In this document: piece by piece, positions 2 to 3,897 of the stretch
Layout: the number at the start of each line of letters is the position of its first letter
Position numbering within the stretch: the first letter of the stretch is position 1
NCBI GenBank assembly: GCA_963934255.1
Contig: CAWVXU010000080.1
Coordinates: forward strand, 1-12,024
Reading direction: 5' to 3'
From: an uncultured Fibrobacterales bacterium
GTDB lineage: Bacteria > Fibrobacterota > Fibrobacteria > Fibrobacterales > CAWVXU01
DNA: 12,024 nt
The notes under the pieces: generated by a model
What the model was told of the DNA's origin: nothing
The model's database searches: none
The model's input: the letters and a program-made list of their open reading frames with translations, nothing else
Program-made: the position numbers and the translations under genes

Positions 2-553
2 TATCAATTTGATCATTTTGGTGAAAAAGCTCAAGATGTTCAAGTAATTGTAGATGGGAAATTAAATCAACTCTACACTACTTATTTCACAACACCATAC
101 AATTCAACCCACAACAATGGGCACTATCGGTATTCTAGTCTTTGGCCAGGCAACTTATTAATTAACTATAACAATGGCTTATCTACACAAGATTTTCAAA
201 ATTTTGCAGCTCAAATGGTTAAACAAGAAGGTCTTATAAAACTACTTGTAATTGAAAAATTTCCCGATCAAGACGCTTTAGACTTATTAAGTGAATCAAC
301 TCAGATGAGTTTAGCTATAAATACAAGCAGTGATTCTCATAGTTTTGTTCTCGAAAGACCAGTTAAAATGTATTGGTTAGACCCCATAACTGGCCAAACA
401 AAATACACGACACCTATGAATATTCAAGCACTTGACTTCAAAAGCTTAAGACTCATTCGCTCTGCCTCAAGCTCAAAATATTTGTATCAACCTTTTGCTG
501 CATATAGTATGTATACCCCCGACATCCTTATTGGACTTATTGATGCACGGTAA
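2..553 (+). CDS. Hypothetical protein, 5'-partial (C-terminal >=183 aa of a gene starting left of the window)
   Basis: The frame of track ORF 215..553 is open with no stop back to position 2 (YQFDHFGEKAQDVQVIV...FAAQMVKQ...), so the ATG at 215 is probably internal. Ends at TAA 551-553, convergent with ftsZ. No family recognised with confidence. Confidence 0.7.
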   Translation, partial: YQFDHFGEKAQDVQVIVDGKLNQLYTTYFTTPYNSTHNNGHYRYSSLWPGNLLINYNNGLSTQDFQNFAAQMVKQEGLIKLLVIEKFPDQDALDLLSESTQMSLAINTSSDSHSFVLERPVKMYWLDPITGQTKYTTPMNIQALDFKSLRLIRSASSSKYLYQPFAAYSMYTPDILIGLIDAR

Positions 554-639
554 ATTATTGTTATCCATTATTTTATATTCATACTAAATTCAATACCTCA
601 ATGAAGACTCTATGAATTTCCAAAGCACCTTATAAAAGT

Positions 640-671
640 TTAAAGCCTCCAATTTACATTGGAGGCTTTAA
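640..671. terminator. Intrinsic terminator hairpin, probably bidirectional, between the convergent + ORF and the dcw operon
   Basis: Perfect 14-bp inverted repeat ttaaagcctccaat-(ttac)-attggaggctttaa. On the minus strand it reads ...GGAGGCUUUAAACUUUUAU. U tails are short or interrupted on both strands. Confidence 0.8.
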
Positions 672-735
672 GGGTTACCCTCAACGAGAGTTTTAACTAA
701 CAGGGAGTGAAGTCAAAACCCTCTCTCGGGCGGGG
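668..735 (-). ncRNA. Structured element in the ftsZ 3' UTR (candidate cis-element or 3'UTR-derived sRNA; possibly related to the ftsZ-DE motif)
   Basis: Minus-strand RNA: 13-bp stem GAGGGUUUUGACU (723-711) / AGUUAAAACUCUC (698-686) with two G.U pairs and 12-nt loop UCACUCCCUGUU (710-699). It is followed by a 7-bp hairpin UUGAGGG-UAA-CCCUUAA (684-668). The G.U pairs form only on the minus strand. GC-rich relative to the neighbouring intergenic DNA. Confidence 0.55.
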
Positions 736-2610
736 TTAGTAATCGTGATTTCTGAGAAATGCAGGGGTTTCAAAATCATCATCATCTTTTCCAAAATTAG
801 GACTTGAACTTGGAATACTTGCTGATGGCTTGCTTTCTATTAACTGAGTCTGATTATCTTGAATAGCTTCATCACGCAAGTATGAAGGCTGTTCTAAGTC
901 TTTCAATGAAGAAGACCCAGATTCTTCCACTCTTTTAACTTGTGGGCTATATATTGAGTTCATTGTTGGTGTTTTAATTGGTTCTACTGTTTTTTGAACC
1001 TCAGTTTTTATGGATTCCAAATTTCTAAGATAAGCGGGTACATCCGCACCTTGTGGATGTTCAAGATGAGAGGTTTCTTTCACCCAGAGTTCTTCTTTAA
1101 CTTCTAGAAAAGAATCTTGTAAATTTGTAATGAGAGTAACAGGCTTCCTTTCAGATGCAAATGATGTTGGCTCTTCAATCATCAAATTTTCATGCTCTTT
1201 GGGTGACATTTGATTTTCAATTTCTAATTCTTGTTTTTCAGCAGTAGAAGCGAGGTTGGTAACAGTTCTCATATCATACATTGGAGATGCAATTACAGCA
1301 ACAGGCTCTTCTTGCACTTCATACATGCTGTTTGGTTGAATATATACAGAAGGTGTTATTATACCTTGGAAGGGAGCTACCGGTGTAGCCATAGTTGGCA
1401 CAATTTGCTGAACAGGTTGTATAAACGCTTCAGGTGCTGACTCAGGATTTGGTGCAGATTGTTGAACTACAGGCTGAGCAATAGGCTGAGGCTGCAATGG
1501 AGCTGAATGAAGAGATGGTGTAGGTTGTTGAATCACAGGTTGAGCCACAGGCTGAGATTGCGGATCAGCAGAGTCTACTCGACTCTCAAAACTAGGTTGG
1601 TCTCCAGTGATACCTACTTGAGATACGAATTTATCATTATCATCTTTTCTAAAACCAGTAGAAATAACTGTTACGGTTATTTTACCTTCAAGATCAGGAT
1701 TGATTACTGTCCCAAAGATAATGTTTGGTACATTTTCTTCACCAACTTCACTATAAATATAAGACATTGCTTCATTGATTTCATGAATACCCATGTCTTC
1801 TCCGCCGGTCATATTCACAAGAATACCTGAAGAACCTTCAATGCGAATATCATCAAGTAAAGGGCTGTTGATTGCACGTTGAGCGGCAGTCATTGCCCGG
1901 TTTTCACCTTCGGCTGTTCCTGTACCCATTAATGCATCACCACCACATGTCATAATAGTTTTAATGTCTGCAAAGTCAACTTGAATTAATCCATGTTTCA
2001 AAATAATTTCAGAGATGCCACGAACTGCACCTACGAGAACCTCATCACATGCAGCAAAAGCATCCTTGACCGACATATTGTTATCTGCAATGGATAAGAT
2101 TTTTTGATTTTGAATCGTAATAATAGTATCAACCGACTCTTTTAATAATTTCAATCCATTTACTGAGTTCTTCGCACGAATAGGTCCTTCAAAGAAGAAT
2201 GGACGAGTTACTACAGCAACGGATAAAATATCCATTTCTTTACAAAGTTGAGCAACTACTGGAGCACCACCAGTACCTGTACCACCGCCCATACCAGCTG
2301 TGATAAACACCATATCTGCACCATCAAGTGCTTCTCGAACTTCGACTAAAGATTCATTTATTGCATCAAAACCAACTTCTGGTTTAGCACCTGCACCCAA
2401 GCCCTTAGTCAGTTCTTTACCTAAAGAAATCTTTTTATGAGCTGCACTATTTTCTAGTGCCATTGCATCAGTATTAATAGAAATAAATTCTACCCCTTCA
2501 AGTCCTGAATGAACCATGCGATTGACTGCATTTCCACCAGCACCACCGATACCTAAGACTTTTATCTTTGCTCTATTTTCGTTTGCTGGATCATTTTCAA
2601 TTCTAGCCAT
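736..2610 (-). CDS. ftsZ: Cell division GTPase FtsZ with very long C-terminal tail (624 aa)
   Basis: KIKVLGIGGAGGNAVNRM, INTD, GLGAGAKPEVG, tubulin signature GMGGGTGTGG, PFFFEG, VDFAD, ITVTVISTGF at the end of the core (~aa 320), and terminal DFETPAFLR. Lies downstream of ftsA. Confidence 0.99.
   Translation of the reverse strand: MARIENDPANENRAKIKVLGIGGAGGNAVNRMVHSGLEGVEFISINTDAMALENSAAHKKISLGKELTKGLGAGAKPEVGFDAINESLVEVREALDGADMVFITAGMGGGTGTGGAPVVAQLCKEMDILSVAVVTRPFFFEGPIRAKNSVNGLKLLKESVDTIITIQNQKILSIADNNMSVKDAFAACDEVLVGAVRGISEIILKHGLIQVDFADIKTIMTCGGDALMGTGTAEGENRAMTAAQRAINSPLLDDIRIEGSSGILVNMTGGEDMGIHEINEAMSYIYSEVGEENVPNIIFGTVINPDLEGKITVTVISTGFRKDDNDKFVSQVGITGDQPSFESRVDSADPQSQPVAQPVIQQPTPSLHSAPLQPQPIAQPVVQQSAPNPESAPEAFIQPVQQIVPTMATPVAPFQGIITPSVYIQPNSMYEVQEEPVAVIASPMYDMRTVTNLASTAEKQELEIENQMSPKEHENLMIEEPTSFASERKPVTLITNLQDSFLEVKEELWVKETSHLEHPQGADVPAYLRNLESIKTEVQKTVEPIKTPTMNSIYSPQVKRVEESGSSSLKDLEQPSYLRDEAIQDNQTQLIESKPSASIPSSSPNFGKDDDDFETPAFLRNHDY
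1459..1556 (-). repeat. Imperfect 32-bp direct repeat in the Q/P-rich FtsZ linker (1459-1490 and 1525-1556)
   Basis: ttgttgaactacaggctgagcaataggctgag vs ttgttgaatcacaggttgagccacaggctgag, 27/32 identical, offset 66 nt (in frame). Encodes QPIAQPVVQQ and QPVAQPVIQQ. Confidence 0.75.
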
Positions 2611-2616
2611 GTGTAT

Positions 2617-2625
2617 CTCCCTGTT
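2617..2625 (-). promoter_or_regulatory. ftsZ ribosome-binding site (AACAGGGAG)
   Basis: mRNA reads CCAAACAGGGAGAUACAC-AUG. The SD-like AGGGAG ends 6 nt before the start codon, within the 36-nt ftsA-ftsZ spacer. Confidence 0.8.
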
Positions 2626-2646
2626 TGGCGTGATTATTTTAAATTA

Positions 2647-3897
2647 TTAGATGTAGTTTTTAGCCCATCCCGCAAATTTACGGAAAAGATTTATTACTCC
2701 ATCATTACTAGAATTACCGTGTTTGGTAGTTCCGTTAGCTTTTAATTGTTCAAGTCCATAAAGGAGTAACCCAACTCCGGTCGCATGTATAGGCGTATGT
2801 ACTGAATTATAAAGGCCTTTAAGTTTTTTAGGGTATCCAACTTTAACTGGTATACCTTCGAAAACTTCTTCTGCCAGTCGTGCAGTTCCTTCACATAAAG
2901 AACCACCGCCTGTAATGATAATGCCTGCCCCAAGATTATTTGTCAGCTTATGCTTTTTCAAATCTTGATATACCATTTCAAAAATTTCTTTCATTCGTGC
3001 TCTTATTACTTTTGCAACAAAGGATTTCTCAATCTCTCGAGCTTTTGCTCCACCGACACCCGGTACTTTAATTTGTTCTTCTTCTATGTTGGATACAGCA
3101 CAAGCACCGTATTTGACTTTAATACTTTCAGCACCTCTAATTGGAGTGCGAAGCGCAATAGCCAAATCAGATGTTACATTGGCTCCACCAAACTCAATTG
3201 AACTGGTGTATTTTATAGATTTATTGGCGTAGACTGCAATGTCAGTTGTTCCACCGCCCATATCAATAACAGCGCATCCAAGTTCACGCTCATCACTATC
3301 TAGGACTGCATAGGCTGAAGCTAAAGGTTCTAGAACAATATCACTTGTATCAATCCCAGCTTTTCTAACTGAATTATAGATGTTTTGAGCCGAAGAAATT
3401 GCAGCAGTCACAATGTGAACATTTCCCTCAATTTTGATACCACACATACCAACAGGATCTTTAATTCCTGACTGGTCATCTACGACAAAATTTTGAGGAA
3501 TGACATGAATAATTTCTCTATCTTCGGGGATACTGAATGTTGAAGCCTGTTCTATACAACGCTGAATATCATGTGGAGTAATGAGAGAGTCTGATTTTGC
3601 TACAGTAATAATTCCTTTAGAATCAAATGACTGAATATGTCTACCAGCAATACCAACAACTACTTCACGTACTTCAATTCCCGCTACATTTTCAGCCTCT
3701 TCAATTGCTTTTTTAATTGATTGAACTGTTTTATCAATATGAACGACTACACCTTTTTTTAGCCCATCTGACACAGACGTACCAATTCCAACAATTTCAA
3801 CTTCGTCTTCATCATTAACTTGGCCGATTACCACGCCAATTTTAGTGGTACCAATATCTAATGCTACTAAAATTCTATTTTCCATTTCTTGCCTCAT
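2647..3897 (-). CDS. ftsA: Cell division protein FtsA (true start may be the second ATG at 3885)
   Basis: ALDIGTTKI, GLKKGVVVHID, VLEPLASAYAVL, IDMGGGTTD, GGANVTSDLA, IIITGGG, and amphipathic C-terminal helix VINLFRKFAGWAKNYI. A GAGG lies 6 nt before the ATG at 3885, while the ATG at 3897 overlaps the ftsQ stop (TAATG). Confidence 0.98.
   Translation of the reverse strand: MRQEMENRILVALDIGTTKIGVVIGQVNDEDEVEIVGIGTSVSDGLKKGVVVHIDKTVQSIKKAIEEAENVAGIEVREVVVGIAGRHIQSFDSKGIITVAKSDSLITPHDIQRCIEQASTFSIPEDREIIHVIPQNFVVDDQSGIKDPVGMCGIKIEGNVHIVTAAISSAQNIYNSVRKAGIDTSDIVLEPLASAYAVLDSDERELGCAVIDMGGGTTDIAVYANKSIKYTSSIEFGGANVTSDLAIALRTPIRGAESIKVKYGACAVSNIEEEQIKVPGVGGAKAREIEKSFVAKVIRARMKEIFEMVYQDLKKHKLTNNLGAGIIITGGGSLCEGTARLAEEVFEGIPVKVGYPKKLKGLYNSVHTPIHATGVGLLLYGLEQLKANGTTKHGNSSNDGVINLFRKFAGWAKNYI

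Follow-up and report, generated by a model that had tools for sequence, protein, structure and literature searches.

A conserved hairpin downstream of ftsZ with a loop predicted to pair with the gene's own ribosome-binding site

Natural long-range pairings between the 5' and 3' parts of one bacterial mRNA are few, and the excerpted text of PMC12697547 names icaR and hbs as cases. In icaR of S. aureus, the 7-nt sequence UCCCCUG in the 3' UTR pairs with the Shine-Dalgarno (SD) sequence of its own message, blocks initiation and lowers both mRNA and translation; whether it acts in cis or in trans is left open as well (excerpts of PMC3868564). In Vibrio cholerae, the operon 3' ends OppZ and CarZ pair with their own transcripts and inhibit translation, and OppZ represses only part of its operon and in this way sets stoichiometry, according to excerpts of PMC7398697 and PMC9438474.

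The hairpin described here lies in the window, which is the whole stretch of 12,024 nt that was analyzed. The window's genome (G000) measures 2.67 Mb with 38.6% GC and is detected in marine metagenome runs. FtsZ relatives were found at 72-78% identity. Named FtsZ homologues belong to Fibrobacterota, and named records with the motif of its relatives are Fibrobacter or Fibrobacteraceae, from which we infer that the order sampled is Fibrobacterales. The gene ftsZ closes a dcw cluster whose order we take to be murE-murF-murD-like-ftsW-murG-murC-ftsQ-ftsA-ftsZ, all names except ftsZ, ftsA and ftsQ being presumed from the translations. The relevant features are as follows.

2..553, plus strand: convergent open reading frame without a Pfam match, its 5' end beyond the window; outside the element.
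640..671, minus strand: intrinsic-terminator-like hairpin and U tract (z -7.5), the predicted 3' end of the ftsZ/dcw transcript.
686..723, minus strand: 13-bp hairpin displaying the anti-RBS loop, extendable to 677-731.
699..710, minus strand: 12-nt loop UCACUCCCUGUU, with 699-707 complementary to the ribosome-binding site (RBS) and an open UCCCU core.
736..2610, minus strand: ftsZ, 624 aa, closing gene of the dcw cluster (Pfam Tubulin and FtsZ_C).
2611..2646, minus strand: ftsA-ftsZ spacer, A/C-rich and weakly folded (opening cost 1.1 kcal/mol).
2617..2625, minus strand: ftsZ RBS AACAGGGAG, the predicted target, 6 nt 5' of the ATG.
2647..3897, minus strand: ftsA (Pfam), the cistron 5' of the predicted target site.

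The FtsZ protein has a very long linker of about 290 aa, rich in P, Q, S and E (window 736-1640), with three copies of PAYLR/PSYLR/PAFLR-like repeats that we take to be the core peptide.

Comparative sequence evidence indicates that the ftsZ tail hairpin is a real, conserved RNA element. Like icaR, it has in the 3' UTR a C-rich motif that is the complement of the message's own SD (excerpts of PMC3868564). It differs from icaR in that the predicted target is an internal operon RBS of an essential division gene, and in that the motif sits in a hairpin loop, often that of the terminator, which is conserved with compensation across an order. Pairing and translation block of the icaR type are demonstrated by gel shift, toeprint and compensatory mutation; for ftsZ, natural compensation among relatives was scored. 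As to cleavage of an icaR-type duplex, RNase III is present, and the predicted ftsZ duplex is only 6-10 bp. The element is like OppZ and CarZ in that it is predicted to act on a start region of the operon to which it belongs, the ftsA-ftsZ spacer. However, the excerpted descriptions have OppZ depend on Hfq and on RNase E processing, whereas Hfq (PF17209) was not found in 5/5 genomes, two of them complete. An unpaired UCCC seed directed against an SD independently of Hfq is shared with RsaE and RNAIII, as excerpted from PMC3868564 and PMC2790875; these RNAs act on many other mRNAs, whereas the ftsZ tail has one shared predicted target, its parent gene. RNA control of ftsZ translation has a precedent in E. 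coli, where the sRNA DicF represses it (excerpts of PMC9438474). DicF depends on Hfq and comes from a prophage and not from the ftsZ transcript, so its action is no autoregulation. The literature searched yielded no case of ftsZ controlling itself through RNA.

Part of this element is already catalogued. Rfam family RF02985, ftsZ-DE (Rfam type 'Gene; sRNA'), corresponds to the ftsZ tail of genus g6, where 6/20 loci exceed the cut-off, and it is found once per genome in 51/58 genomes of family f3 at E 0.001. This RNA family reportedly comes from Weinberg et al. 2017. The word 'ftsZ' has 0 matches in the main text of PMC5737381, the presumed source, and the literature search found no statement of a function or target for ftsZ-DE, on which the supplement of that source may comment. 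The model gave no match in window positions 500-900 at E up to 10, and none in the window's genome (gathering cut-off 72.2 bits); the window's hairpin is thus a diverged counterpart. Like RF02985, it lies immediately 3' of ftsZ, on the strand of that gene, and has a CUCCCU loop, aligning without gaps and in the same pairing register as the Fibrobacteraceae hairpin. Unlike RF02985, the window lacks a 5' hairpin and CA-rich linker, with 12 nt from stop to stem, and its loop hairpin is followed by the separate terminator at 640-671, whereas in RF02985 the loop hairpin is itself the terminator, with a U tract. The loop element spans four families, of which RF02985 covers one. A covariance model of our own (R1, 22 f3 hairpins) was rejected: it recovers held-out L135 and L186, misses the window, L002, L003, L004, L011, L021 and L124, and finds other hairpins in the window's genome.

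An earlier, sequence-only reading of the window had described the hairpin and its loop match, and its coordinates and letters are correct. The stem (723-711 with 698-686, including two G-U pairs) has 13 bp and begins 12 nt past the ftsZ stop, and loop positions 699-707 are the exact reverse complement of the RBS at 2617-2625. Of the two strands, only that of ftsZ folds into the hairpin (z -3.7, compared with z -0.5 for the opposite strand). The statement that the match lies wholly in the unpaired loop was approximate: the UCCCU core is open (P 0.89-1.0) and not buried in an alternative fold, and three flanking nucleotides are not open (P 0.08-0.23). In the ViennaRNA fold the loop contains a weak 2-bp CA/UG closure, which takes about 1.4-1.6 kcal/mol to open; the fully open loop is 1.4 kcal/mol above the MFE. 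On the other side of the predicted duplex, the RBS is accessible because the spacer is A/C-rich and weakly folded. Co-folding and whole-mRNA folding are uninformative on the pairing itself, because a strand that pairs with the loop of a hairpin crosses its stem, an arrangement that nested folding is unable to represent. The chance estimate given for the 9-mer in that reading needs correction, because it ignored multiple testing; shuffled pairings give about 1.05 matches of at least 9 nt per round. In the window's genome 807 genes have a 3' hairpin; for ftsZ alone does the loop match 9 nt of the gene's own start region, and pairing of loops with their own starts shows no excess above shuffles in this set. 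The 9-mer is present twice in the window, where 0.06 occurrences would be expected. Since roughly one 9-nt match of this kind is to be expected in each genome, the match in a single genome is not significant alone, and conservation among relatives carries the claim. An Rfam scan of the window gave weak chance matches only, and a plasmid search returned nothing relevant. In four sets of RNA contigs, the listed pieces cover parts of ftsZ and ftsA and none covers 640-735, which is uninformative either way.

Loci of ftsZ were collected from the order, class and phylum, and afterwards as a held-out set. A uniform test blind to the RBS was applied, in which local hairpins were found first and a complement of at least 6 nt to the locus's own SD was then required. 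The test was positive at 38/41 order loci and at 11/11 held-out canonical loci, hence at 49/52, compared with 0/23 other loci of the class and 0/45 other loci of the phylum, or 0/68 outside the order. Positives also comprised 5/72 unrelated metagenome ftsZ loci, three of them near-identical, and 5/700 random genes of the window's genome, with ftsZ itself among them. The metagenome loci are mostly distant lineages and served as an outgroup only; 8/80 were dropped for missing ends, as was L139. The unpublished genome G195 contributes to the class and phylum tallies and possibly to the RF02985 count for f3, and nothing else depends on it. Two of the misses in the order, L011 and L021, retain complementarity of 10 and 9 nt, respectively, although the hairpin is weak; the third, L124, has lost loop and RBS site together.

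Loop and RBS word are jointly missing in two lineages. In genome G196 the ftsZ start has CAGGAG and there is no loop; in genus g11, 9/9 loci have (C/T)GGAGG and 0/9 are positive in the hairpin test. At the level of sequence comparison, this joint loss is independent support for the pairing. In the FtsZ tree the order and the class-level outgroups are not cleanly set apart, and we therefore claim no succession of gain or loss from it. The division machinery of g11 is strongly remodelled. Its FtsZ (L402-L410, L424-L426, L433-L434) is only 26-32% identical to the window's, a gene that we take to be cysS-like abuts the ftsZ stop, FtsA exceeds the cut-off in 0/5 g11 genomes, and the ftsA position of the dcw cluster holds a 460-aa protein without a significant Pfam match. 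Separately, three metagenome contigs (L051, L053, L055) have the ftsZ RBS GGGGGUG and a 3' hairpin with the complementary CACCCCC in its loop region, possibly an independent origin of ftsZ loop/RBS complementarity.

The sequence-only reading had proposed to check whether loop and RBS vary together among relatives, and in the order loci the loop is conserved and does track the RBS. Contiguous complement between them runs to 6-10 nt in 51/51 loci. Cognate pairs match over 7.86 nt on average compared with 7.13 nt for swapped pairs (p 1.2e-4 over 13 genera; p 0.003 for energy; p 7e-4 without the window's genus; marginal inside family f3, with p 0.043 for run length and 0.030 for energy), although these p values overstate the difference, because the genera are related and because cognate extension served as tie-break for the first 40 loop sites, which were chosen in-loop first. 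The core GGGA/UCCC is invariant and therefore cannot itself show compensation. The flanking positions, by contrast, show partial compensation. Where CAGGGA has its C, seven genera form C-G, g9 forms U-A and held-out g68 forms A-U, whereas g3, g5, g7 and g10 have a mismatch. At the third position past the core, g3 has C-G and g5 has G-C; A-U is shared by g7 and g9, most g6 have U-G, and most g4 are mismatched. Flanks are often mismatched; position -3 pairs in 3/51 loci, and the contiguous match is only 6-7 nt in g4 (16/17 loci), g2 and g12, with a G-A mismatch at +1. In the hairpin, 15/16 stem pairs change on both sides and 91% of cells are paired while the loop is held, and the UCCC seed is unpaired with P of at least 0.99 in 38/40 loci.

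Both partners are also unusual words. AGGGAG occurs in the ftsZ start region of 40/41 loci of the order, compared with 3/23 in the class and 5/45 in the phylum, and it is rare genome-wide (31/2073 genes of the window's genome, and 4/308 and 2/311 genes sampled with crude gene calls from the relatives G029 and G039). An altered 16S tail as the cause was rejected, since the tail is the canonical ACCUCCUUU in 2/2 genomes read; these do not include the window's genome, in which 16S was not found. Given the canonical tail, and because AAGGAG/AGGAG is commoner among gene start regions, AGGGAG is not simply the optimal SD. The ftsZ RBS 7-mers CAGGGAG and AGGGAGA are the majority word in 8/8 genera, compared with 2/8 for the best 7-mer of recA, 3/5 for groEL and 2/7 for tsf. 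UCCC loops, in turn, are rare in terminator-like hairpins (1/242, 0/76, 0/77 and 2/49 in four genomes or samples).

Complementarity, accessibility, order-wide conservation, flank compensation and joint loss are thus all present at the sequence level, and the proposal of the sequence-only reading that the loop pairs with the RBS of its own gene gains support from the comparison. Loop and RBS are retained or lost jointly from lineage to lineage, and it is very probable that they pair at the RNA level and so restrain FtsZ production. We consider it quite likely that the pairing occurs in vivo, and somewhat less so, although still probable overall, that its sign is repressive. Our preferred model, which we hold to be likely, is that the 3' end of the message would occlude its own ftsZ ribosome site independently of Hfq and so lower FtsZ synthesis. 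The C-rich loop at the 3' end of the ftsZ (dcw) transcript would base-pair over 6-10 nt with the ftsZ SD region and compete there with the 30S subunit. Only ftsZ would be affected and ftsA left untouched; the word CAGGGAG is absent from the ftsA start region of the window. The ftsZ part of the message would probably be shorter-lived, being exposed to decay. Since the loop is made only after ftsZ has been fully transcribed, the brake would be delayed, with free translation first and damping later. Such pairing could form a feedback loop.

The pairing could take place in cis, within one molecule, or in trans, by a stable 3' fragment or the end of another transcript. We give slightly less than half of the weight to the cis form and slightly more than half to the trans form, and only the latter would yield dose-dependent feedback. 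In favor of cis are the short pairing and the absence of detected Hfq, without which a trans RNA must pair unaided. According to the excerpted results of PMC12697547, mRNA and translation both fall in B. subtilis when an 8-nt anti-SD is placed hundreds of nt 3' of its target, so that unshielded 8-mers work in cis over such distances, with an effect that declines with distance. Anti-RBS 8-mers located between pairing segments or between two 3' UTR hairpins had little or no effect in the same source, and this failure of structure-flanked 8-mers in cis favors trans. The long distance, about 1.9 kb in the window, points the same way, as may the compact layout of most f3 tails (5' hairpin, CA-rich linker, terminator hairpin), which by analogy resembles that of a stable fragment.

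It is unlikely, although it has the best standing among the alternatives, that the loop is instead the seed of a 3'-derived small RNA with other mRNAs as its main targets, ftsZ being a side target or coincidence. Positions 640-735 were scanned against 2072 start regions of the window's genome by a procedure that is IntaRNA-like and not IntaRNA itself, using perfect helices and opening costs. After correction for accessibility, ftsZ ranks 2/2072 (-11.2 kcal/mol) and first among loop-using matches, in agreement with its proposed role as target, whereas ranks 3-6 pair nearly as well (-10.5 to -9.2 kcal/mol), as a small RNA of wider reach would lead one to expect. The identical 9-mer AACAGGGAG also occurs at one other gene start (contig C45 near 2167, minus strand), in a gene that, from its translation, is presumably ilvN-like; this site is poorly accessible and ranks 11. 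By eye, a further C-rich loop, CCCCU, is frequent in the hairpin 5' of the main one (L111, L134, L135, L186, L396-L399); its presence in several f3 genera recalls multi-target C-rich RNAs, and the ftsA start has no evident conserved site matching it. However, five genomes have 41 sites of the form CAGGGAGA-N(4-9)-ATG; among the 30 that were read, ftsZ alone is represented in all five, and N-termini gave no evident second shared target under this strict pattern. A small RNA for other targets also fits poorly with the unusual conservation of the ftsZ RBS itself and its loss together with the loop.

Improbable, and more so than a small RNA for other targets, is that loop and RBS pair for protection or for coupling of stability and translation, without repression. 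Its model is hbs of B. subtilis, in which an interaction between 5' and 3' UTRs controls ribonuclease action (excerpts of PMC5737220). Ribonucleases are available: RNase E/G and RNase III are present in 5/5 genomes, RNase III exceeding the cut-off in 4, while RNase Y does so in 0/5. On the other hand, the pairing covers the SD, and tested cases of this kind lowered both translation and stability, as far as the excerpts of PMC3868564 and PMC12697547 report.

We assign the same low probability to separate conservation of the two motifs. The RBS would be kept for its translation rate and the loop for a protein, be it CsrA bound to the opposite strand, a DNA-binding factor or a barrier to exonucleases, and the complementarity would result solely from the fact that C-rich words complement G-rich ones. 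C-rich loops do occur in recA 3' hairpins of three genomes (G001, G004, G007), and CsrA is present in G000, G001 and G007. However, two complete genomes that retain the element, G029 and G039, yielded no CsrA; with the hairpin at z -0.5 on the opposite strand, a CsrA site there was rejected. The G-U pairs likewise place the structure on the ftsZ strand, and independent conservation predicts neither a better cognate than swapped match nor joint loss. A chance match or a dispersed-repeat copy is very improbable: one 9-nt match per genome is indeed expected by chance, but the hairpin is single-copy in the window's genome by BLAST, by which a repeat origin was rejected, and the contrast of 49/52 canonical loci of the order with 0/68 outside it already refutes this reading.

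Tails of recA drew attention in their own right. In genera g4 and g6, GCCAU is found in the recA 3' region of 30/30 loci (L226-L255), mostly in a hairpin loop, UUUAGCCAUU in g6 and UUUCGCCAUAU in g4. This word complements the recA start AUGGC, many g6 loci reaching 8-9 perfect pairs, and tracks the start imperfectly: g4 mostly has AUGGCA, and two g6 loci have AUGACU. This loop was not seen in hairpin loops of G000, G001, G002, G004, G005 or G007. The recA tail of g4 and g6 may be another tail that pairs with its own message, or else a small RNA directed at a different target. The recA 3' loops of L330, L334 and L335 (G001, G007 and G004), by comparison, are C-rich (AAUCUCCC; UCUCUCCCAUC) and, by eye, find their complement of 6-7 nt in the ftsZ RBS of the respective genome and not in that of recA. 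If real, such a recA tail could damp ftsZ under DNA damage.

Returning to repression of ftsZ by its own 3' end, we tentatively suggest a more specific form, to which we give only about one chance in three: across Fibrobacterales, the stable 3' remnant would be a protein-free counter of ftsZ messages that shuts the RBS as it accumulates. This would be the function of ftsZ-DE, and the loop of the recA terminator, facing the recA start codon, would be a second case. The ftsZ case adds to the few described 5'-3' pairings an order-wide comparative record, with natural compensatory variants and natural losses, and gives the catalogued ftsZ-DE motif a concrete predicted target while extending it from one family to four. 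The level of FtsZ sets the timing of bacterial division. If the message-counting reading is true, the dose of FtsZ and the FtsZ:FtsA ratio would be buffered, and division timing set, at the level of RNA.
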